From positions 6,265 to 70,264 of IMG/VR virus record IMGVR_UViG_3300032180_000006: 64,000 bases of DNA, one strand, 5' to 3'. Numbering within the stretch: the first letter of the stretch is position 1; each line of letters starts with the position of its first letter. Of this stretch, positions 1-64,000 are shown one piece after another. Origin of the DNA: a virus. The notes beneath the pieces are model-generated. The model had not been told where the DNA came from. It saw only the letters and a program-made list of their open reading frames with translations, and did no database searches. The position numbers and the translations under genes are program-made.

Positions 1-283
1 GCCCAGCAGCGGTAAAGCCATAGTTAAAGGCTGCCACACCTGCGCAGCTTTGCACGGGCAGGTCGTGCTCGCGCCAGCGTGGTCCAAATTTACCGCACGT
101 CTGTACAGTGTCAGCCGTGCGCACGGCCAGCAGCGCGGTGAAGGCGATTTTATTGGTAGTGTCCAACAGCTTGGGTCGCGGGCTGTCGGGTAGTGTTTGA
201 CAATGACCCATCGCACCGACTAAAAGAAACAGCAGCGCCAGCGCGACGAGGGCTATGGTTACGTCCTTGCTATCTTGTTGCAT
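1..283 (-). CDS. Hypothetical membrane/secreted protein (runs off window edge)
   Basis: ATG at 283 after GGAGG; MQQDSKDVTIALVALALLFLLVGAMG hydrophobic N-terminus; frame open to position 1. Confidence 0.6.
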   Translation of the reverse strand, partial: MQQDSKDVTIALVALALLFLLVGAMGHCQTLPDSPRPKLLDTTNKIAFTALLAVRTADTVQTCGKFGPRWREHDLPVQSCAGVAAFNYGFTAAG

Positions 284-389
284 TTTACTGCCTCCCTTGG
301 AACTGCGTTCGTTCAAGTGGCTGAGGGTTTGGCTGCCACTGGCTATGCGCTAGAACGCAATTCCAAGCGGAGCAGTAAAACTCCGCTTG
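284..389 (-). other. Structured intergenic RNA element with alternative hairpins overlapping the RBS
   Basis: UUGGAAUUGCGUUC/GAACGCAGUUCCAA stem; CAAGCGGAG/CUCCGCUUG hairpin competes with UUUUACUGC/GCAGUAAAA. Confidence 0.55.
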
Positions 390-391
390 TG

Positions 392-622
392 CTACCTGGA
401 TTTTCTGGCTGAGTGTATTACAGATGGCCCGCGCAGCGTGTCGGCGATGAAGAGATTCACTTGGTCTTCATGGCGATACTCAGCAATTCTTCGTTCGTCC
501 ACCCACTCGCCGTCGACGGCTGAGAAGCGTTGTGGCATCAGTTGATAGTAGAGTGAACCGGGAATCAGTTCAACGATGATACGACGATCACCATCGTTGG
601 CGATTAATTCAGATTTTGGCAT
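392..622 (-). CDS. Hypothetical early protein (76 aa, MPKSELI)
   Basis: AAGGAGAA RBS before ATG 622; the MQVASPAT extension in the ORF track is ribozyme sequence. Confidence 0.75.
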   Translation of the reverse strand: MPKSELIANDGDRRIIVELIPGSLYYQLMPQRFSAVDGEWVDERRIAEYRHEDQVNLFIADTLRGPSVIHSARKSR

Positions 623-644
623 TGCATTCTCCTTTAACTGCGTT

Positions 645-709
645 GCAGGGCTTGCAACCTGCATGCCGCATTACAGTCCGCGAGGCAAGGTGCGCGGGCT
701 GTGCTCTGC
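645..709 (-). ncRNA. Twister ribozyme, circularly permuted (P5-type), copy A
   Basis: GCAGAG-CA-[P1 hairpin]-UAAUGC-GGCAU-GCAGG UUGCAAGC CCUGC; T1 GCA/UGC; predicted cut 673/672. Confidence 0.88.
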
Positions 710-713
710 GTCT

Positions 714-929
714 TTACGTACCTGTGATTAAGGTGATGCGCCGCTTAACGCTGTCATCTTCAATTTGCAGCGCCTCAACCACATCATTGACGCACTCGTA
801 TAAGCGTTCTCTAACTTCCGTTTTGCTGAGTTTACTGGTGGGCTGGTCAGCGACAATACTGGCAAGCGCTGCGCCTGCATTGGCTACGCAGTCGTAAAAA
901 CTGCGTTCACGTTTACTACCGTCGGGCAT
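714..929 (-). CDS. Hypothetical early protein (71 aa, MPDGSK)
   Basis: CAGGAGAAGGGAA before ATG 929. Confidence 0.7.
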   Translation of the reverse strand: MPDGSKRERSFYDCVANAGAALASIVADQPTSKLSKTEVRERLYECVNDVVEALQIEDDSVKRRITLITGT

Positions 930-945
930 TTCCCTTCTCCTGTTC

Positions 946-1020
946 TGCCTCATGGCGGACTTGGAACCGCCTGTGTGCATTACAACCCGGCACGAAACCG
1001 GGCTGTCCTCTGCTTAGGCA
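946..1020 (-). ncRNA. Twister ribozyme, P5-type, copy B
   Basis: P5 UGCCU/AGGCA; GCAGAG-GA-CAGCCCGG..CCGGGUUG-UAAUGC; P4 GGCGG UUCCAAGU CCGCC; T1 GGA/UCC; cut 982/981. Confidence 0.9.
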
Positions 1021-1229
1021 ATAGGCTCCAGCGTTACCTTGAACCCGCTTACTGCATCGGGGTCAATACCAGCTTTGAGCATAGCAGCTTTGCTGACGTA
1101 GATACTGGTCAGCGCTGGGTCCTTGGCACCTTGCTCGGCGTCAAAGCGAACACTGTGCTTCTTCTCAATGCGAACGGGCAATAACTGAACGATGGATTTC
1201 GCTGTTATCGTACCCTGTTTAGTAGCCAT
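1014..1229 (-). CDS. Hypothetical early protein (71 aa)
   Basis: GGAGG RBS; stop codon lies 2-3 nt from the GCAGAG of ribozyme B. Confidence 0.75.
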   Translation of the reverse strand: MATKQGTITAKSIVQLLPVRIEKKHSVRFDAEQGAKDPALTSIYVSKAAMLKAGIDPDAVSGFKVTLEPIA

Positions 1230-1251
1230 GATTGGCCTCCATCTGCCTCAT

Positions 1252-1307
1252 GCGCGACTTGGGACGCGCTCTGTGCATTACAGCCCGGTTCGCGGGCTGC
1301 CCTCTGC
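1252..1307 (-). ncRNA. Twister ribozyme, P5-type, copy C
   Basis: GCAGAG-GG-CAGCCCG..CGGGCUG-UAAUGC; P4 GCGCG UCCCAAGU CGCGC; T1 GGG/CCC; cut 1280/1279. Confidence 0.88.
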
Positions 1308-1308
1308 T

Positions 1309-1569
1309 TTATGCTGCTGTGATGGGTTTGAATTCTAGCGCCGCGCATGTATCACAATCATTGCGCCGTTCATGTTGCGCATGTATCAGTAGGCTTTGGA
1401 TTGACGTATCGCCGTTGAACCATTGCTCACAGTGTGTGCACTGATAGCGCTTAACGCCATCGTTGCGGTTTTCAAGTTCAAAGTGCGCGCCAAGGTGCAG
1501 CGCCAGCGTTTCGAATTCTGCCAGCGTTACAGTGCGCAAACGCACATTGTAATTGATAGTTGGTGGCAT
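1309..1569 (-). CDS. Cys/His zinc-finger-like early protein
   Basis: AAGGAG RBS; YQCTHC...HAQH...CDTC. Confidence 0.7.
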   Translation of the reverse strand: MPPTINYNVRLRTVTLAEFETLALHLGAHFELENRNDGVKRYQCTHCEQWFNGDTSIQSLLIHAQHERRNDCDTCAALEFKPITAA

Positions 1570-1585
1570 TTCTGTTCTCCTTTTT

Positions 1586-1648
1586 AGCGTTGCAGGGCTT
1601 GCAACCTGCATGCCGCATTGCGCGGGCAGCGCCCGCGTGCTCTGCGCT
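1586..1648 (-). ncRNA. Twister ribozyme, P5-type, copy D
   Basis: GCAGAG-CA-CGCGGGC GCU GCCCGCG-CAAUGC-GGCAU-GCAGG UUGCAAGC CCUGC; cut C1620/A1619. Confidence 0.85.
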
Positions 1649-1654
1649 TACCTT

Positions 1655-2281
1655 TTACATACCCAGCTTGCCCGCGCACTCCGGGCCGAAACCGCTGGCT
1701 ACACTTTCAGGAACGGTGAGCGTTCGCCCGCATCTGCCGCACTTGCCCGCGTGCCATATTTCAAGCTCGGCGGGCAGTATGCCACCTACCAGTCGGCGCA
1801 GACTCCATGCCAACGCCTTAACAGGTATGCTGTCATTGTTCATGTGGCTCTTGCGGGTAAGCTGGAAGACGTTGTGCTTAATCATGCCGATGTAGACATA
1901 ATCGCCCGTGTTGTCCGGGCCACTTAGCAGGCTGACAAAGTACACCACACCGTTGTTCGCGTAGGCTGGGTTGTCCTTGGCACGGCGCACCTTATAGGTA
2001 TACCGTGCGCCCGTGGCTTTGCTGCGCAGCGTGAAGGTAGCGTTGCCGCCTGTAATGAACTGCAACGCTCGCTGTGCTGTGCTCAGGTGGGCAGGGCCAA
2101 CACCATCTAACGGTAACTGCTGCGCAGGTGCAGGCGGCACCATACGGTCAAATTCGTTGTCTGTGTCGTCAACCGCCATAGCGGGCTTTGCAGGTTTCCT
2201 GCGTGTCATGTCGGCTTGTGTGGTGTTAGCCATGCGCGTATAGAACGGTGCTTCGTTGACGTTGTGGTAACGGCGGGTCAT
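1655..2281 (-). CDS. DUF6011-like zinc-ribbon protein
   Basis: C-terminal CGRCGRTLTVPESVASGFGPEC; AAGGAG RBS before ATG 2281. Confidence 0.75.
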   Translation of the reverse strand: MTRRYHNVNEAPFYTRMANTTQADMTRRKPAKPAMAVDDTDNEFDRMVPPAPAQQLPLDGVGPAHLSTAQRALQFITGGNATFTLRSKATGARYTYKVRRAKDNPAYANNGVVYFVSLLSGPDNTGDYVYIGMIKHNVFQLTRKSHMNNDSIPVKALAWSLRRLVGGILPAELEIWHAGKCGRCGRTLTVPESVASGFGPECAGKLGM

Positions 2282-2298
2282 GGTAAATCTCCTTTGGA

Positions 2299-2402
2299 GC
2301 GTTGCAGGGCTTGCAACCTGCATGCCGCATTACAGCAGCCAAGCCCAGCGAGCAGGGAGTGATGTGCTGGGCTTGGTAACTACTGTGCTCTGCGAACTAC
2401 GC
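2299..2402 (-). ncRNA. Twister ribozyme, P5-type, copy E (long P1)
   Basis: P5 GCGU/ACGC; GCAGAG-CA-CAGUAG..CCAAGCCCAGC/GCUGGGCUUGG..CUGCUG-UAAUGC; same P4/L4 as A and D; cut 2332/2331. Confidence 0.88.
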
Positions 2403-2633
2403 GGCCAGCTTAACCAGCTTGGACGCCACAGCAAAGCGGATGAAGCTGTTGTCCGCGCCGACTTTCTTCAGCTTTGGAATGGCCTTATCGGTGGTCTTGC
2501 TGGTCAGGATGATGTCCATGCCCTTCTGCCGCTTGGTACCCTTGCGAGCACCGTGTTCGCGGTTGATGACGACGATTTTCTTGCCAGTGTAACGACCAAC
2601 GGAACGACGAGCAACTTTCTTTGAGTTTTTCAT
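2397..2633 (-). CDS. Small basic protein, possibly nucleic-acid binding
   Basis: 78 aa, Lys/Arg rich, AAGGA RBS. Confidence 0.7.
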   Translation of the reverse strand: MKNSKKVARRSVGRYTGKKIVVINREHGARKGTKRQKGMDIILTSKTTDKAIPKLKKVGADNSFIRFAVASKLVKLAA

Positions 2634-2684
2634 TTTTGTTTATCCTTTTCTTAGTTGAATTTCTGCGGCTGGTACCTTATACCT

Positions 2685-2740
2685 GAGCTCATCAGTGCCT
2701 GATTTTACAGGCAGACACGGCGCAATGCCGTGTTTCGCTC
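2685..2740 (-). ncRNA. Hammerhead ribozyme, type II
   Basis: GAGC-GAAAC-ACGGC AUUGC GCCGU-GUC-UGCCUG UAAAAU CAGGCA-CUGAUGA-GCUC: complete core and three stems; cut after C at 2714. Confidence 0.95.
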
Positions 2741-2745
2741 TTTTT

Positions 2746-2847
2746 CTAGAGCCATAGAAGACGGCGCAGGTAGTGCGCAAAGCCCGCTAAGTCTGTACAC
2801 AGACCGCGAGCAAAGTTTTGAGCGTAAAGCGCAAATCCTCGTGCCAT
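2746..2847 (-). CDS. Small ORF, 33 aa (MARGFALYAQ)
   Basis: AAGGAGGCGGCAAGAAATG leader, nearly identical to that of the upstream gene; below ORF-track cutoff. Confidence 0.55.
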   Translation of the reverse strand: MARGFALYAQNFARGLCTDLAGFAHYLRRLLWL

Positions 2848-2874
2848 TTCTTGCCGCCTCCTTAACGGTTTCAC

Positions 2875-3108
2875 TTACGCAATGCGAACCATTGCAATCA
2901 GCAGTTCGTTCGGTGTGCCTTTAGCGTAATCCAACCATTTGCCATCTTGCAGGCGTTGTGTGTACAGCATGACTTGTCCTTGACTGTCTACGTAGCTCGC
3001 ACCTTGCGAAATACGATAACGGCCAGTACGGTCGTGCGTCAGTGCAAACTCTTGCGGAAATTTGCCCATCGCTTCTAAAATCTTAAGGTCGTCATTTTCA
3101 TGCCACAT
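2875..3108 (-). CDS. Hypothetical early protein (MWHEND)
   Basis: AGGAGGCGGCAAGAAATG leader. Confidence 0.7.
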   Translation of the reverse strand: MWHENDDLKILEAMGKFPQEFALTHDRTGRYRISQGASYVDSQGQVMLYTQRLQDGKWLDYAKGTPNELLIAMVRIA

Positions 3109-3122
3109 TTCTTGCCGCCTCC

Positions 3123-3213
3123 TAGCGGTTTGCAGCACCTTATACAAGGTTGCCGTGCTTTCGCGGCAATCGCGCTGCATTTCATGCAGTGTATAAGGTG
3201 CTGCAAACCGCTA
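3123..3213. repeat. Perfect 24-bp inverted repeat enclosing two small hairpins
   Basis: TAGCGGTTTGCAGCACCTTATACA (3123-3146) / TGTATAAGGTGCTGCAAACCGCTA (3190-3213). Confidence 0.9.
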
Positions 3214-3457
3214 CGGGTTGCGCCTTGGCTAAAGTGCCGCCCGCTCGGCTGGGCATTGCGTGTACATCCGCTTTTATGCGCGTTACACGTCGCAGCCTGC
3301 TTCGCAGGTGGTTGGTACTTTGCCAAGGGCTTGTGGAGGCGGTGGCTTGCGCGCTTGAAAACCGCCGTAGCTTTCGGGCTGGCCCTCTGCAAGTGCGTTG
3401 CAGTTTAACCGTTTAACTCCGCCTGCCCTGTGTTGTCAATGAACTGTTACTGCACAT

Positions 3458-3486
3458 AATGTACGCCTGTAGTTACAGGCATGCAA
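3458..3486 (-). promoter_or_regulatory. Sigma70-like promoter with palindromic operator, upstream of the ribozyme operon
   Basis: TTGCAT-17 nt-TACATT; spacer contains GCCTGTAACTACAGGC. Confidence 0.55.
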
Positions 3487-3535
3487 GCAAAAAGTGAAAA
3501 ATAGGCCTGACTTTATCAGACCTGTTTTCAATCAC

Positions 3536-3709
3536 TTAGGCAGCGCGTACGAAAACTGACGCAACCCAGCACGGCGGGCTTAGTCGCAGGCGGGCTGCAT
3601 TAATGGCGCGCACATCTTCACCATATCGTAACAGAGTTTGCGTCTGTGCGATGCCCAGTTGTTGCCAGTGCCACCAGCTTTGTGACGCAACAAAATATTC
3701 TGTCTTCAT
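3536..3709 (-). CDS. Hypothetical protein
   Basis: ORF coupled (TAATG) to upstream gene. Confidence 0.5.
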   Translation of the reverse strand: MKTEYFVASQSWWHWQQLGIAQTQTLLRYGEDVRAINAARLRLSPPCWVASVFVRAA

Positions 3710-3936
3710 TATTTCACCGCCGTAACGCAACTGATAGCCGTACCACCATCTGCAAAGTTGGCGACAATAGCGTAACAGCGTGTATGCGTTTCGCGATCTT
3801 CAACGAACAATAAGGTGTGAGTGTGGTTCGTCCATTCAACATTGACCCACAATTTTGAAACCGCTTGCGACAAACCAAGGTTAAATGCCGCCAGCAGCCC
3901 AACAGCTACCCATATTCCTATAACAAATTTTTTCAT
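3709..3936 (-). CDS. Small membrane/secreted protein
   Basis: MKKFVIGIWVAVGLLAAF; GGGAG RBS. Confidence 0.6.
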   Translation of the reverse strand: MKKFVIGIWVAVGLLAAFNLGLSQAVSKLWVNVEWTNHTHTLLFVEDRETHTRCYAIVANFADGGTAISCVTAVK

Positions 3937-4127
3937 GCTGCGCTCCCTTTCTTTAGTTCTTCATTACTTGTCAGCGCGTAGTTTCTTAAGCGATGCTGTA
4001 TGTACAGCAAAAATCGTTCCTCCAAGTCCCTGATATTGTTCGAACGTGGTTCGGCGTTTGCCTGTACTTCCAAGGTGTACTTGGTAGCAAGATACAGCAG
4101 ATGGTCTAATACGCGCCTGTCGTCCAC
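3933..4127 (-). CDS. Hypothetical protein
   Basis: GAGG RBS, GTG start just downstream of a promoter. Confidence 0.5.
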   Translation of the reverse strand: MDDRRVLDHLLYLATKYTLEVQANAEPRSNNIRDLEERFLLYIQHRLRNYALTSNEELKKGSAA

Positions 4128-4147
4128 CGTCTTTTACCTCTACCAGT

Positions 4148-4176
4148 ATTATACCTTTATAACTACACCATTGCAA
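4148..4176 (-). promoter_or_regulatory. Sigma70-like promoter
   Basis: TTGCAA-17 nt-TATAAT; TGTAGTTATA in spacer. Confidence 0.7.
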
Positions 4177-4181
4177 TAGAT

Positions 4182-5627
4182 CTATGGTGTCTGGTGGCGC
4201 ACCTTAATATACGTGCGTAGAGCCTGCATCAACCCGCGCTGTGTGCGTTCTTTGCTGCGCATGGCGCGCAGTTTACTTTCATCTACGGTGTCGCGGGCTA
4301 TAAAGTGGTGGACGATCACGTGGCCGTGCTTGTTACCCTGCCTGCGCACGCGGCGGATAAACTGGTCGTAGTTTTCAAAGTCCCAAGGCACGGTATAGAA
4401 CGCTACGTGCTGGCACTGACCTTCTTGCAGATTAAGCCCATGCGCTACGCTGGCGACGTTACAGGCGAACAGCGACAGCTTATTGCCGTTCCACTGCTGT
4501 ATGATGCGCCGCGCATCGTCGGGCTTGACACCACCTTTAATGTATGGCGTCCGCGGGAACGCGGTCAGTATGCGTTCCAGGTCATGGTCAAACTCAAAGC
4601 CCAGCAGCAGCGGCACACCTTGCAGTTCTTCAACTAGATCTACCAGTGCCTCGGTCTTGGCATTGTGCAGCAATTTACTGATGCGGTTGATGCGCTCGTT
4701 TTTCAGTTCGTTAATATAGATTCCGCCGCTGGCAACTTGACAGCATTTCATACTGGCGACGGCTGCGTTCACGGCGGTAACTACGCTGCGATCTTCCAGT
4801 TCAGCTATCATTTCATCTTCAAGGTCATCGTAAATTTTGCGCGCTGCTGGTGGCAGTGCCACGCGAATAATGTTCGGTACTTCCTTGGGTACCTTGAGGT
4901 ACTCATTTTCATCCAGACTTAGCACCAGCGGCTTGATGGCGCGCTGGATTGCCTTTTCGCCGCCCTGCTTCAATCGCCAGTTGTACACGATTGGCCCGCT
5001 GCCTCCAGCGGGTATAAAATAATTCATGCGGAAATGCGTTATGTATTCGCCCAGCGCCTTTCCTAAGTCTAGAATGTAGATTTGCCCAAACAAATCCATG
5101 TACCCATTAGGATTCGGGCTGCCTGTAAGTATCCAGCGTCGTTGGAAACGTGATAAGAACGGCTTCAGCAGCTTGAACCGCCGTGTTCGCGTGTGTTTGA
5201 ACTTACTGCTTTCATCAATGATCAGCAATTCAGGCTTGATTATATTGAACGGTGACTGCCCGGTGCGATTGGCAAAGAACCACGGCAACCCATCAGGATT
5301 GATAATGTACACATCCGCGTCCGTATTAACGGCATCGTCCTTGTTATCGCCGTGCAGTATGTTCCAACGCAGGTGGCTGAACTGTTTCCACTGGTCAATC
5401 TGCACGGGCCATACTTCATACGCTGGCCGCAAAGGCGGCACCACCAGCGCACGACGAATCAGTTTATTTTTCAGCAGTATGTCTAGTGCTTTTAACGCGA
5501 TGCTGGTTTTTCCCAGTCCTGGGTCTAAGAACAGACCTGCGCTGCATTGTTTTAGCAGGAACTGCACTGCCATTTTTTGATACGGGTGTGGTATCCAATC
5601 CTGTTGCAAAAATGTATTTTCTGGCAT
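4182..5627 (-). CDS. SNF2-like (DEAD/SF2) helicase
   Basis: PGLGKT, IIDESS, LTGSP, HGLNLQ, RVRRQG motifs; start uncertain (5627 or 5771). Confidence 0.9.
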   Translation of the reverse strand: MPENTFLQQDWIPHPYQKMAVQFLLKQCSAGLFLDPGLGKTSIALKALDILLKNKLIRRALVVPPLRPAYEVWPVQIDQWKQFSHLRWNILHGDNKDDAVNTDADVYIINPDGLPWFFANRTGQSPFNIIKPELLIIDESSKFKHTRTRRFKLLKPFLSRFQRRWILTGSPNPNGYMDLFGQIYILDLGKALGEYITHFRMNYFIPAGGSGPIVYNWRLKQGGEKAIQRAIKPLVLSLDENEYLKVPKEVPNIIRVALPPAARKIYDDLEDEMIAELEDRSVVTAVNAAVASMKCCQVASGGIYINELKNERINRISKLLHNAKTEALVDLVEELQGVPLLLGFEFDHDLERILTAFPRTPYIKGGVKPDDARRIIQQWNGNKLSLFACNVASVAHGLNLQEGQCQHVAFYTVPWDFENYDQFIRRVRRQGNKHGHVIVHHFIARDTVDESKLRAMRSKERTQRGLMQALRTYIKVRHQTP

Positions 5628-5988
5628 CAAGTTCGTGGGTAAATCTTCTTGGTACGATTTTGGCAAAAGCGTCGCTGATTGTTTTTGCGAAGAACTTGCC
5701 TTCTTTTTCTCTTCTAAGTAATTCCTTGAGATAGGCAATGGCTTTGTCTTTGTTGTCAAAATAGGTGACATCGTAACCTAGTTTCTTTAGAATACTGATG
5801 GTGTGCTGCTGTAAACGTCTAGGTTTCTTACCCGGTCGCTTGAACTCCATTAAGCAGGGGCGACCGCCCGGTATAAAGAAAATTCTATCTGTGTACCCGC
5901 GTCTGCCCAGCACGTTCAGCTTTAAGTGCAGCAGCCCGCACGCATCAGCCCAGTGGCACACGGGCTTTTCAATGTTGTGTTCAAGCAT
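5464..5988 (-). CDS. VRR-NUC domain nuclease
   Basis: E..IE, GYTDRIF, MEFKRPG..RRLQ. Confidence 0.85.
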   Translation of the reverse strand: MLEHNIEKPVCHWADACGLLHLKLNVLGRRGYTDRIFFIPGGRPCLMEFKRPGKKPRRLQQHTISILKKLGYDVTYFDNKDKAIAYLKELLRREKEGKFFAKTISDAFAKIVPRRFTHELDARKYIFATGLDTTPVSKNGSAVPAKTMQRRSVLRPRTGKNQHRVKSTRHTAEK

Positions 5989-5989
5989 G

Positions 5990-6193
5990 CTAATCTTTCA
6001 ATTCTTTGGCAAGTTCCAGCAAAGCATACCACTGGTTACTGTCAAATGAAATGCCGATCTTGTTATCAATATACACAGATACTACGTTCACTGTACGATG
6101 GCTAACTAAATGCATGGTGTGTCCGGGACATCCTTCTCTTACGCAATCGTCCACACAGCGGTATTGAATCTTTGATGTAGTTTTCGTAGACAT
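5990..6193 (-). CDS. Hypothetical protein
   Basis: Coupled ORF in operon. Confidence 0.55.
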   Translation of the reverse strand: MSTKTTSKIQYRCVDDCVREGCPGHTMHLVSHRTVNVVSVYIDNKIGISFDSNQWYALLELAKELKD

Positions 6194-33907: not shown

Positions 33908-36079
33908 ATGCCCAAGAACAGCATCAAAGGCGCTGCGAACGCGGTTAAGCGTGAAGACGCAAAACTGCGCCGTGCGGTTATGGACGCCAAGACACCGGGT
34001 AAGAAGCTGTCGCCTGCTTTCCAGCGGGTCACCATGGACAGCTTTCAAAATTTCGCGGCGCAACTTGGTATCGGCACAGGAAACCTCACCAGTTTCAACA
34101 CCTATGGCTTCAATCCTATTACGCGCATCCATACGCTGTTGGAGTGGATTCACCGCGGAAGCTGGATTGGTGGCGTAGCGGTAGACATTGTCGCTGATGA
34201 CATGACGCGAGCAGGCATCAGCCTTAAGGGTAACATTAAACCTGAATCGATTGAGAAAATCAACGCAGAAGCTACTCGCCTCGGTATCTGGTCGGCTATA
34301 AACGACACTGCAAAATGGGCGCGCCTGTTTGGCGGATGTATCGGCGTACTGCTAATCGATGGGCAAGATCCCAGCACTGAGTTCCGCATTAAGACGGTAA
34401 GCAAGGAGCAGTTCAAAGGCATATTGCCGCTGGATCGCTGGATGGTAGAGCCAGACCTCACCAATCTGGTTAGTCAATTCGGTCCGCAACTAGGGATGCC
34501 TCCTCGTTATCGCGTTACCAGCGACACGGCACCTGTATTCCGCGGGAAGTGGATTCACTATACGCGCTGCATTCGCATGGAAGGCATTCGTTTACCCTAT
34601 TGGCAGCGCGTGATTGAGAATCTTTGGGGATTAAGTGTTCTTGAGCGCTTGTATGACCGCATGACCGCCTTTGATGCCGCCAGCACCGGAGCAGCGCAAC
34701 TGCTGCATAAGTTGCACCTGCGCACCTATAAGATTGAGGATTTGCGCAGCAACATCAATCAGGGCGGCGATTCTATGACCGGGCTGCTCAAGTACGTGGA
34801 CATGATGCGCAAGTTCCAGTCCATTGAAGGTATGACTTTGATGGATAAGGATGATGAATTTGAAGTGCAGGGCAGTACGGCTGTCGGTGGTGTTGCTGAA
34901 CTAATGACACACTTCGGGCAGCAGATTAGCGGTGCGCTGCAAATACCTCTTGTCAGGTTGTTTGGGCAATCACCTATCGGGCTAAACGCTACGGGTGAGA
35001 GCGACCTGCGCATGTACTACGATGGCATTTATCAGCAACAGGAACGCTACCTGCACGAGCCCATCGCCACGGTATATCGCTGCATCGCGCAGTCGCTAGG
35101 AATCAAGTTACCTGATGACTTCGATATTCGCTTCAACCCATTGTGGCAGCTTATGGAGAAAGAGAAGGCAGAGATCGCGCAGGTTGTAACGACCGCTGTC
35201 ACCACGGCGCAAGAAGCTGGGCTTATTACACAGCGCACCGGGTTGCAGGAACTGCGCCAGTCCAGTGAGACAACGGGCGTATTCAGCAACATCACCGACG
35301 ATGACATCGCGGCTGCTGAAATTGAATTACCGCCGGGTCTACCTGTTGAAGAGGAAACGGCTGCGATTCGGGCTGGTGGCGGCAGTGCAGAAGATGCGGA
35401 GTTTCAAGACCCTTTGGTAGAAGGTAAGACTGCCCGCGAATGGTCAAATGAAATGACACGGTTGCGCGACATCAAACCGCGTCCCATTGAAAAGTTGTAC
35501 GGCACGAATGGACCGACGACAGAACAACTTGAAAAATGGAAGTCTGATATGCGTGAGTGGAATAAGTTGTATGGCCGCGTATCCAGAAATCAAAAAGTTG
35601 CGCTACAACTAAGCAATGAAGCATTTCGTAAGTGGAAGGAACGCGGCGGAACCTATGATGCAGCACACACCAGCGCGGGTCAACTTGCATGGCACCACGA
35701 CCTTCAAGTTGTGATTGAGAACCCGGCAGGTACGGAGCGTCGTGGTTATGGTTGGGTTGCCAAGATGCCCGCTGATTATGGCTATGTGCGCCGCGTTGAT
35801 GGTGCAGACGGCGACGCTCTGGATTGTTACATAGGCCCAGCGCCGGAAAGTTCGAATGTCTTCGTTATTAATCAACGTCGTTTGCAAGACGGCGCGTTCG
35901 ATGAACATAAGATAATGCTCGGCTACCACAGCCAGGAAAGCGCGATTGAGGATTACGTGCTGGGCTATACCGATGGCAGTGGGCCGAGGCGAATGATGGA
36001 TTGTATTGCCACCAGCATGGATGAGTTCAAGGAATGGATGAAAGACGGAGACCATACCAAGCCCTATGCTCGTTCTTGA
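33908..36079 (+). CDS. Portal protein (DUF1073-like) fused to inorganic-pyrophosphatase-like domain
   Basis: VDIVADDMTR, WARLFGG, IPLVRLFGQSP.GLNATGESD; C-term IENPAG..DYGY..GADGD.LD..DEHK. Confidence 0.9.
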   Translation: MPKNSIKGAANAVKREDAKLRRAVMDAKTPGKKLSPAFQRVTMDSFQNFAAQLGIGTGNLTSFNTYGFNPITRIHTLLEWIHRGSWIGGVAVDIVADDMTRAGISLKGNIKPESIEKINAEATRLGIWSAINDTAKWARLFGGCIGVLLIDGQDPSTEFRIKTVSKEQFKGILPLDRWMVEPDLTNLVSQFGPQLGMPPRYRVTSDTAPVFRGKWIHYTRCIRMEGIRLPYWQRVIENLWGLSVLERLYDRMTAFDAASTGAAQLLHKLHLRTYKIEDLRSNINQGGDSMTGLLKYVDMMRKFQSIEGMTLMDKDDEFEVQGSTAVGGVAELMTHFGQQISGALQIPLVRLFGQSPIGLNATGESDLRMYYDGIYQQQERYLHEPIATVYRCIAQSLGIKLPDDFDIRFNPLWQLMEKEKAEIAQVVTTAVTTAQEAGLITQRTGLQELRQSSETTGVFSNITDDDIAAAEIELPPGLPVEEETAAIRAGGGSAEDAEFQDPLVEGKTAREWSNEMTRLRDIKPRPIEKLYGTNGPTTEQLEKWKSDMREWNKLYGRVSRNQKVALQLSNEAFRKWKERGGTYDAAHTSAGQLAWHHDLQVVIENPAGTERRGYGWVAKMPADYGYVRRVDGADGDALDCYIGPAPESSNVFVINQRRLQDGAFDEHKIMLGYHSQESAIEDYVLGYTDGSGPRRMMDCIATSMDEFKEWMKDGDHTKPYARS

Positions 36080-61721: not shown

Positions 61722-62345
61722 CTAGACGAACGGTGCCGTACTCCTAGCCAGCGGAGGTATTTGCCCTGTTTTTGGTGCAATTAAGGTTTCCTTCCAAAGC
61801 ACGTCCAGCGCGGCCACTAACTCATTGCAGCGTTGGTGCAGTGAGTCATAGGAGGACACGTTGCGCACTAGTTCTGCAACATAGCTATGAAACCGCTCGT
61901 ACGGTGCTTCGGCGTAGCGATTGCCCAGCCGTCGTTCGTGAATACAGCTCAGCATTCCTTCCATACAGTCCGCAAGTTTTAGTACAAACTTTTGTCCGAG
62001 GGTAAGTGTAAATAACATATTATTTTCTGCGAGCGTTTTGTTTTCATTTTTATCTAGCAGATCACCGATTTCAAGAGCTCGCTTCGCGGGCGCGCTGACG
62101 TCACTCCACACCTGCTCAGCCATATCGTGAGATAGCGCGGCCATAAGCAGATCAACCGAGCAGCTTCCCTTCGTTAAAAGATAACAGAACCATGCAACGC
62201 CGAATTGGTGCTGGGCCAGCGTTACACCATGCAACATCGGTACAGTGTGGAAGCGCTGCACGCTTCGGCCATAGAGAAGGAATATCATTTCCTGTCTAGG
62301 GTCAGTTGATTTTTTTCCCATGCGTTCTAACATGGTCTCAAGCAT
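61722..62345 (-). CDS. HD-domain 5'-deoxynucleotidase-like protein (YfbR-like)
   Basis: V.RFH, LAQH, AL.HD.AE...D, LKLAD..E; AAGGAG RBS. Confidence 0.85.
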   Translation of the reverse strand: MLETMLERMGKKSTDPRQEMIFLLYGRSVQRFHTVPMLHGVTLAQHQFGVAWFCYLLTKGSCSVDLLMAALSHDMAEQVWSDVSAPAKRALEIGDLLDKNENKTLAENNMLFTLTLGQKFVLKLADCMEGMLSCIHERRLGNRYAEAPYERFHSYVAELVRNVSSYDSLHQRCNELVAALDVLWKETLIAPKTGQIPPLARSTAPFV

Positions 62346-63411
62346 TTGCCGCCCGCTCCTTTTTCTGATTACGACGGTTGATCCATTCTTTGCACGCAAT
62401 GTGCCAATCATTGTTCGCTGGCATGCGCAGTATGTGTTCCATCCCAGTACCCGCTTTCTCCTTTCGTAGTATGTAAGCTGCGTACATAGGACCAGCAATG
62501 GTTTCAAGGAAGAAGTTATGTGTTTCACGACCGCGTGTTTCAATAAAGCGGTTCACATGCCACTGTGTCCAATTTTCTTGATGACCCATTTGAACCCATT
62601 GAAGAGGTTGAAAATCTGCGCATTGCAGCCGGAACAACGGCGAGTCCGAATAATAATTGTAGTGCAGAGCGTCATTCGCGTATTCGCGCAGCCGTTCCTC
62701 CGGTACGACGCTGGTGTACAGATGAAAATTGTTGCTGACTTGGTAGTACAAACCCATCGGCACGCCGATGCGGTCGGCAACGTATTCTTGCAGTATGCTG
62801 AAGTGCACGGCGTTTGCGCCATACGCTCCCCACCAGATGTCGTTGCTGCGACAGCATACAGTCATGTTCAGTTTGCCGCCGCGACAATCAAAGTAAGCGT
62901 GTGTATTGCAGGGTACGTCCTTGCCGTCTGCGAACGCAATTTTTAAATCACTCTTTCTGCGTGGCACGTAACCATCCGGGTCATCGCATTCTGTACCATC
63001 CCACATTGCCAGTACGCATCTACGACTGCTTGGGTTACGTTGCAGTTCAGTAACTATTTCTGTAAGCTGGTCGTATCCAAACCATTCACGCCAGCGATGC
63101 CCGTATGCGCCGTGCACCACAACACCGTCATCACTGTAGCTGCCGAAGTTGCTGTTGAAGTACCGCGGAAATTCAAGGTCGTTGCGCCCAGCCAACATCC
63201 ACAACGCTTCCATCAAATGGAAGAACGGGTTGGCATCTCGTAGCGGGCTGAACAGCACGCGCTGCCACGGTTTATGGTAGACAGTGGTCACTGGTCCGGG
63301 AGCGACCAACACTGGTCCGTTGCGACTGGGTTCTTTGATGCCGTGGTCTGCAAGATAAATCAAGCCGTGGTGCAAGGCTGTGTTGACGTTATCGCATTCT
63401 ATGACGTGCAT
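62338..63411 (-). CDS. Thymidylate synthase family protein, likely dUMP hydroxymethyltransferase
   Basis: ANPFF, AYG.RW, SRR, DVPCN, RSND...GAN, N.HLY. Confidence 0.9.
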   Translation of the reverse strand: MHVIECDNVNTALHHGLIYLADHGIKEPSRNGPVLVAPGPVTTVYHKPWQRVLFSPLRDANPFFHLMEALWMLAGRNDLEFPRYFNSNFGSYSDDGVVVHGAYGHRWREWFGYDQLTEIVTELQRNPSSRRCVLAMWDGTECDDPDGYVPRRKSDLKIAFADGKDVPCNTHAYFDCRGGKLNMTVCCRSNDIWWGAYGANAVHFSILQEYVADRIGVPMGLYYQVSNNFHLYTSVVPEERLREYANDALHYNYYSDSPLFRLQCADFQPLQWVQMGHQENWTQWHVNRFIETRGRETHNFFLETIAGPMYAAYILRKEKAGTGMEHILRMPANNDWHIACKEWINRRNQKKERAANA

Positions 63412-63587
63412 TTCGTAACTTCCTCTATTGACTGTACTAAATTCAATAATCCGTAGTAGAAAAAAGCGCGCTCCTTTGCGTTTGGTCCGCTGAAAATAGT
63501 AACTTCTATAGCGCCATCTTCAAGTATTGTTTCAACACGCCAAGCATTTTCAGAAAATTTGTCTTGCTCTACGCTACGTTTCTTCAA
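63399..63587 (-). CDS. Hypothetical protein
   Basis: WRVE...DG..E.T.F.GP.A..RA; coupled. Confidence 0.6.
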   Translation of the reverse strand: MKKRSVEQDKFSENAWRVETILEDGAIEVTIFSGPNAKERAFFYYGLLNLVQSIEEVTKCTS

Positions 63588-64000
63588 TTTGCGCCTCCAT
63601 TATATTTTTGTTTCGGTCTTCCCTGACCCAATCGTACACGCTCGTACTTATCCCACTCGCATAGGCAGTTCTGCAAGTCTTGCGCGTGCACGGGTGATAA
63701 AATTCGCTGATTACGGTTGACGGTTAAGGTATTTTGAATCAAGCTGTTGATCTGCTTTTGTAACTCTTGTAGTTGCGCCAGCCACGTTGCTTCATTCCAA
63801 CCATCTTGCACATCATGGTGGCAAATACGATTAAGCCCGCGTCGACTGCCCGGTCCGCTGGCTGCCCACGTCCCCCAGTCAACTGCGCTTTTCAGTGGTT
63901 CAACGTACTTGAGGTCAGCTATCACCTGCGCAGCTAGGAAGCTGCCCAGTCCGTTAAAGTGCGTCAAGGTTGTGTGTACCTGCGCCAGCGTTGGCGGTGG
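63584..64000 (-). CDS. 5-hmdU DNA kinase / aGPT-Pplase1-like helical protein (5' part outside window)
   Basis: GLGSFLAAQVIADL, GPGSRRGL, DLQNCLCEWDKY. Confidence 0.8.
   Translation of the reverse strand, partial: PPPTLAQVHTTLTHFNGLGSFLAAQVIADLKYVEPLKSAVDWGTWAASGPGSRRGLNRICHHDVQDGWNEATWLAQLQELQKQINSLIQNTLTVNRNQRILSPVHAQDLQNCLCEWDKYERVRLGQGRPKQKYNGGAN

Follow-up and report, generated by a model that had tools for sequence, protein, structure and literature searches.

In the available text of Perreault et al. 2011 (PMC3088659), multiple hammerhead ribozymes are described as flanking single genes in prophages and phages. Tandem arrays of these hammerheads cleave in vitro and in E. coli, and the role proposed for them is the processing of long phage transcripts into single-gene mRNAs. 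A 2019 review (PMC6765202), in its accessible part, likewise gives polycistronic processing as a suggested role and still calls the role undetermined; what many self-cleaving ribozymes of phages do has been an open question since 2011-2014. Here we analyse a locus of this kind in a 64,000-nucleotide (nt) stretch of viral DNA, termed the window below, which corresponds to bases 6265-70264 of the 70,264-nt IMG/VR virus record IMGVR_UViG_3300032180_000006. The locus comprises five twister ribozymes, labelled E to A in the order of transcription, and a candidate type II hammerhead upstream of them. The array is a further example of the layout already described, in which ribozymes flank single phage genes. 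Judging from the sequence, its six ribozymes are probably intercistronic self-cleaving elements that cut a long leftward transcript into linear mRNAs of one gene each.

The ribozymes and genes of the array

The Rfam Twister-P5 model (RF02684, gathering score 37.6 bits) matched the window five times, always on the minus strand and always above the gathering score (42.1-48.4 bits). These are the sole Twister-P5 matches in the whole 70,264-nt record, and the same search matched 0 of 14 control genomes. All conserved core bases of the twister are present in all five copies. The T1 pseudoknot, which we scored by matching positions 7-9 after GCA with the three bases of the loop that precede AAG, has three of three Watson-Crick pairs in each native twister, and three pair sets occur among the five. 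T2 is a GC:GC pairing in A, D and E and an AC:GU pairing in B and C, a compensated change; in B and C, P2 is only 3 base pairs (bp) long. E and D have the same 3' half over 34 nt, and A matches it over 33 nt. The 5' cores (CGCAGAGCAC) of these three copies are identical as well, while their P1 stems differ completely. Exact matches of the 33-nt half common to A, D and E numbered 0 in metagenome contigs.

The candidate hammerhead scores 33.9 bits with the Rfam model RF02276 (E 5.7e-4 over 8 kb, 6.4e-5 over 901 nt). Its core is intact (GCGAAAC, GUC and CUGAUGAG), both hairpins are present, and stem II is open, with 4 bp. In the alignment it has the features by which we defined a type II hammerhead, namely the core CUGAUGA...GAAA, a cleavage triplet and closed stems I and III. 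The operon mixes two ribozyme classes, the twister and the candidate type II hammerhead.

In transcript order, the hammerhead precedes a gene for 78 amino acids (aa), E the 208-aa DUF6011 gene, D an 86-aa gene, C and B a 71-aa gene each, and A a 76-aa gene (Table 1). Six co-oriented minus-strand ribozymes separate six small genes over 2.4 kb, which is the layout of phage ribozyme-flanked gene arrays. Between a stop codon and the following twister lie -1 to 8 nt, and 23-25 nt separate the end of the Rfam match from the next AUG. An intergenic gap consists of a stop codon, a twister, about 23-25 nt with a Shine-Dalgarno sequence, and a start codon, with no other content.

Table 1. Features of the ribozyme array, in transcript order (window positions; predicted twister cuts are given as N-1/first base of the 3' product)
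Feature	Position	Strand	Details
Candidate type II hammerhead	2682-2740	-	5' of the 78-aa gene; predicted cut after GUC, near 2714
78-aa basic protein gene	2397-2633	-	no family; stop codon 2 nt ahead of twister E
Twister E	2305-2394	-	42.1 bits; type P5, long P1 with insert; T1 GCA:UGC; predicted cut 2332/2331
208-aa gene	1655-2281	-	C-terminal DUF6011 (Pfam E 4.6e-13), phrog_20259; within E-to-D fragment
Twister D	1593-1646	-	48.4 bits; T1 GCA:UGC; N-1 is C, not U; predicted cut 1620/1619
86-aa gene	1309-1569	-	no family; within D-to-C fragment
Twister C	1253-1308	-	48.3 bits; T1 GGG:CCC; T2 AC:GU; predicted cut 1280/1279
AGGCA	1244-1248	-	3' of twister C; pairs with UGCCU 1020-1016 in the C-to-B minimum-energy fold
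71-aa gene	1014-1229	-	no family; stop UAA 1016-1014 overlaps first base of twister B
UGCCU	1016-1020	-	just 5' of twister B; partner is AGGCA after C (chimeric) or after B (native P5)
Twister B	955-1014	-	47.1 bits; T1 GGA:UCC; T2 AC:GU; predicted cut 982/981
71-aa gene	714-929	-	no family; within B-to-A fragment
Twister A	646-710	-	47.6 bits; T1 GCA:UGC; predicted cut 673/672; UUGCCU in P1 loop
76-aa gene	392-622	-	no family; first gene beyond the last twister

The twisters are of the permuted form, open between P4 and P2, and cleavage is predicted before AAUGC. The predicted inter-site fragments measure 712 nt from E to D (2331-1620), 340 nt from D to C, 298 nt from C to B and 309 nt from B to A. 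Each of them would open with AAUGC, then the 5' P2 strand, T2 and the P4 that carries the T1 loop, and would terminate in the 3' P2 strand, GAG, the strand of T1, the entire P1 hairpin and N-1 (NGCAGAG-P1-N). A preliminary description of this DNA had placed two cut junctions at 1620-2331 and 982-1279, in agreement with the cleavage positions predicted here. It had also described a fragment as running from the AAUGC/P4 half of one twister to the GCAGAG/P1 half of the next, which is seen in all inter-site fragments. The DUF6011-like gene that it assigned to the E-to-D fragment is the 208-aa gene.

Covariation and arrays in other phages

Type-P5 twisters were gathered from IMG/VR by a core pattern in which the core words were fixed and the variable T1 positions were left free. 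A first pattern scan was too loose, with a twister at E<=0.01 in only 3 of the 49 records searched. A first covariance model, R1, which drew on the five copies in the window, was too narrow and was replaced by a second, R2. The alignment comprises 72 twisters, 4 of them window copies and 68 from IMG/VR. In it, 99.5% of the T1 helix is paired, and each variable position shows 4-5 types of pair. The first free position of T1 is UA in 44 twisters, GC in 14, CG in 8 and AU in 4; the second is GC in 52, AU in 15, CG in 2, GU in 2 and UA in 1. Over the whole structure, covariation scores 0.515, compared with 0.130 after shuffling; a value this high arose in 0 of 500 shuffles. A covariance model built from the alignment gave 130 matches in 82 sources, some of which are overlapping loci.

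After removal of four redundant loci, arrays of 5-7 twisters were found in IMG/VR at loci L138 (6 twisters), L168 (7), L183 (5), L184 (6) and L149 (5). Their inter-twister fragments are 291-1359 nt long, and stop codon, twister, Shine-Dalgarno sequence and start codon are packed as in the window, with stop-to-twister gaps of -2 to +5 nt being common. The bacterial genomes that we scanned hold mostly single twisters, and pairs at most.

Most genes between twisters are orphans; a Pfam family is assigned to 8 of 37 (DUF932, PAPS reductase, DUF6011, ArdC-N with metallopeptidase, VWA, DUF3489, RadC and pentapeptide repeats). We looked for twisters at 11 loci with homologues of the DUF6011 gene (2 viral, 9 metagenome; 38-55% identity) and found 0 at E<=0.01. 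The variable gene content between arrays, together with these twister-free DUF6011 loci, is consistent with a processing device of general use, not one tied to a particular gene. We also noted that twister-framed genes at L149 3443-4366, L134 6876-7667, L183 3008-3496 and L145 4086-5096 include ArdC-N/metallopeptidase, DUF932, RadC and another DUF6011, a set reminiscent of anti-restriction and leading-region genes.

Possible fates of the transcript

The motifs are observed directly, as are the covariation of their pseudoknots and a layout that recurs in other phages; from these we infer cleavage in vivo, the chemistry of the ends and an effect on stability. The ribozymes would cut the leftward phage transcript during or shortly after transcription. 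Each product would then carry a 5'-OH and next to it the P4 hairpin, some 50 nt ahead of the AUG; at its other end, directly behind the stop codon, would stand the P1 hairpin, terminated by a 2',3'-cyclic phosphate. Such unusual ends may uncouple the stability and translation of a gene from those of its neighbours, and they may guard the product against end-dependent host RNases.

Several points weigh against this reading. Cleavage, ends and product sizes are predictions for this phage, made from its sequence. The hammerhead score lies below the RF02276 gathering score of 37. Among the twisters, D departs from the usual U at N-1 and E carries an insert of 48 nt in P1. Moreover, the identity of 33-34 nt in three 3' halves despite wholly different P1 stems is unexplained by linear processing alone.

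A cleaved fragment might instead close on itself. Its ends rebuild a nicked twister, which the reverse reaction of the ribozyme or a host ligase of the RtcB type could join, giving gene-sized circles. This had been proposed in the preliminary description, and we consider it unlikely, although the refolding geometry is valid: the two halves make a complete twister, as they would between any tandem type-P5 twisters. Since E and D share a 3' half over 34 nt, the chimera formed from the ends of the E-to-D fragment has the same sequence as native D. Its T1 is fully compatible, as claimed, with three of three Watson-Crick pairs. The other chimeras each contain a T1 mismatch, which is a central G.G accompanied by a G.U wobble for D to C, an outer A.C for C to B and a central C.C for B to A. 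The earlier division of these three into a partly compatible one (C to B) and two mismatched ones is therefore a matter of degree only.

Nearest-neighbour folding of the fragments gave a divided picture. At minimum energy, the C-to-B fragment folds into the full chimeric scaffold of P2, P4, AGGCA:UGCCU and P1. The probability of its ends joining in P2 is 0.70 (0.61-0.75) against a shuffle mean of 0.195, with 2 of 25 interior shuffles as high. The AGGCA after C and the UGCCU before B, whose pairing had been suggested, are thus both present and paired in this fold. AGGCA is present after twister B too, however, and is equally usable as B's own P5. For the E-to-D fragment the P2 probability is 0.32, with a shuffle mean of 0.088 and 1 of 12 interior shuffles as high. 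P2 does not close in the D-to-C fragment (0.14; 4 of 25 shuffles as high) or in the B-to-A fragment (0.0; 18 of 25). In the latter, the 5' region is predicted to pair with the P1 of A over 23 bp instead of forming a twister. We observed separately that UUGCCU and GCGGAC in the P1 loop of twister A (644-710, minus strand) have their complements in AGGCAG and GUCCGC, directly downstream of twister B (925-960, minus strand).

If arrays were selected for refolding, their flanks and fragment ends would be expected to favour it. We compared the duplex energy between the 18 nt after one twister and the 18 nt before the next with that of pairs from different loci. The chimeric flanks have a mean of -5.36 kcal/mol (n=42 junctions) against -5.06 kcal/mol for the controls (n=2951; P=0.55). 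Native flanks, at a mean of -5.10 kcal/mol, are equally close to the controls (P=0.52, n=117). Within the window, the C-to-B closing flanks stand out at -12.7 kcal/mol; the native flanks pair in B (-11.0 kcal/mol), C (-10.3) and E (-7.8), and do not in D (-1.7) and A (-1.8). Of the 33 fragments in other arrays, we folded 15, all no longer than 620 nt. Their P2 end-joining probabilities are mostly below 0.07, and their rank of 58 of 120 against interior shuffles is the null value; the test is weak, as the folding models take no account of T1 and T2. In short, the geometric part of the circle proposal stands, and the two comparisons across arrays gave no sign of selection for refolding.

RtcB had 0 matches in the phage genome, in a search whose control was positive in 10 of 14 genomes, and no RNA ligase was found among the 52 larger open reading frames of the phage. 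A circle with a perfect chimeric twister would also be expected to cut itself again unless another fold wins. In the available part of PMC8782182, the twister fold is said to bury the 5' end of the 3' product. In the text of Perreault et al. 2011 (PMC3088659) available to us, circular or spliced products of hammerhead arrays were raised as an alternative and sought, and none were detected (data not shown); the argument that neighbouring twister halves refold in an excised fragment is not found there. Our literature search found no publication on tandem phage twisters yielding circular mRNA.

On the other hand, the Tornado system, in the accessible portion of PMC12628768, yields circular mRNA in E. 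coli from RNA flanked by self-cleaving ribozymes, through the native RtcB. The likeness lies in the ribozyme-flanked RNA, which gains a 5'-OH and a 2',3'-cyclic phosphate that RtcB can join. Tornado, however, is synthetic, whereas the window fragments keep both twister halves, so that any circle made from them would include an entire twister; a closing stem is present in the C-to-B fragment only.

Natural candidates for such circles appear in the preprint by Lee et al. (10.1101/2022.07.19.500677). Its available text reports a 606-nt covalently closed circular RNA (cccRNA; recovered as 841 nt) with one twister-P5, which has the most CRISPR spacer matches (57, from 26 metagenomes). Next, with 13 spacers, comes a cccRNA of 286 nt that carries a type II hammerhead. 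A pistol-bearing 'cccRNA' proved to be a segment of a double-stranded DNA phage. The first two carry the same two ribozyme types as the operon, and 606 and 286 nt fit the sizes of inter-ribozyme fragments (291-1359 nt). CRISPR targeting points to prokaryotic mobile DNA, while the authors read these molecules, in the same available text, as possible RNA replicators. The cccRNAs may derive from phage arrays. The joint claim would be that inter-twister fragments close via the chimeric twister, with or without host RtcB, and that the CRISPR-targeted cccRNAs with a single twister-P5 or a type II hammerhead, found in prokaryote-dominated metatranscriptomes, are such phage circles and not RNA replicators. 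We hold this to be improbable. If it were true, phages would make natural circular mRNAs, and some prokaryotic 'viroid-like' RNAs would need rereading as phage transcripts.

A second suggestion of the preliminary description was that alternating pseudoknots insulate neighbours, that is, that differing T1 pseudoknots were selected to keep adjacent twisters from cross-pairing. The three T1 types in the five window copies fit this idea, although neighbours E and D carry the same T1. We examined T1 neighbours in 15 arrays, three others having been dropped for gaps in the T1 columns and one as a duplicate. In mixed arrays, 21 adjacent pairs are compatible against 23.5 +/- 1.5 in random order (P(<=observed)=0.086), a within-array deficit that is not significant. 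Moreover, strictly compatible adjacent pairs (21 of 41) exceed the 14.3 +/- 2.4 expected from a global shuffle (P=0.005). All seven twisters of the IMG/VR array L168 have GUG:CAC, all six of L184 have GGG:CCC, and five of six in L138 are alike. With a single T1 throughout L168 and L184, alternation is no general rule, and we regard selection for insulation as very unlikely.

It is more doubtful still that the twisters act mainly on the DNA level, as conserved 50-nt boundaries that aid the swap or loss of cassettes by recombination with RNA cleavage secondary: the identical 3' halves and 5' cores of E, D and A next to different P1 stems, the unrelated gene content among arrays and the DUF6011-gene homologues without twisters would all suit such a role, but the strong covariation in P1, P4 and T1 reflects selection on the RNA fold and not on DNA identity, and P4 stems vary between copies in other arrays, so that long identical DNA stretches are not general.

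The phage genome and comparison with known systems

The record is rated complete by CheckV, and its gene set is that of a myovirus-like phage. The genes include those for terminase, portal, major capsid, a sheath-like DUF3383 protein and baseplate proteins. Among the others are those for a family A DNA polymerase, an SNF2 helicase, a primase-like protein and an ATP-dependent DNA ligase. The portal protein (33908-36079, plus strand) has a C-terminal inorganic pyrophosphatase (InPase) domain (Pfam E 8.6e-34). Genes for thymidine/DNA hypermodification lie at 62338-63967 (minus strand) and at locus L251 1336-3098 (minus strand); they encode a thymidylate-synthase-like protein, a 5-hmdU DNA kinase, a TET-associated glycosyltransferase and a radical SAM/SPASM protein. 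By its capsid protein, the closest cultured phage is Edwardsiella phage vB_EpM_ZHS (57% identity), in which no twister was found. Megablast of window positions 1-6000 against phages gave no match, and neither did blastn of twister D; blastn with a consensus-like twister gave a single weak match (E 0.4).

Other structured elements surround the array. After the 76-aa gene, a hairpin at 281-381 (minus strand; -50.8 kcal/mol, z -4.84, 0 of 200 shuffles equally stable) hides the Shine-Dalgarno sequence (GGGAGG) of the next gene along with its AUG region; no Rfam family corresponds to the hairpin. A three-way junction at 3118-3215 (minus strand) has a perfect 24-bp closing stem (-66 kcal/mol, z -6.7) and no Rfam match at E<=5. 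It abuts the Shine-Dalgarno sequence of a 77-aa gene (3108-2875) and could be an RNase III-type site or a novel structured RNA. Farther upstream, directly after a promoter-like site, the motif GCAGAGGGCC at 3351-3391 (minus strand) is followed by CAAGCC-type loops and resembles a twister relic. As a candidate sixth twister near 3390 it was rejected, since the twister model gives it just 2.5 bits (E 3).

The type-P5 twister class reportedly comes from Roth et al. 2014. The window copies agree with RF02684 in P1, P2, P4, T1, T2 and the conserved core bases, and all five exceed the gathering score; they differ in the AC:GU T2 and 3-bp P2 of B and C and in the C at N-1 of D, and a general P5 stem is not evident, since native flanks across loci are on average as complementary as controls.

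For linear processing into single-gene mRNAs, which we favour, phage T7 offers a parallel. In T7 early mRNA, RNase III cuts intercistronic structured sites and produces stable single-gene mRNAs that end in hairpins. That processing needs a host enzyme, whereas the window RNA is predicted to cut itself, leaving 5'-OH and cyclic-phosphate ends. If the ribozymes do nothing but cut, the array would be a clean natural example of host-independent insulators between genes. The nearest likeness is to the arrays described in the available text of Perreault et al. 2011 (PMC3088659), where co-oriented ribozymes each flank one gene or a short block and the genes are variable and often of anti-restriction type. 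Those ribozymes are hammerheads, whereas the window array is built of five type-P5 twisters and one candidate type II hammerhead.

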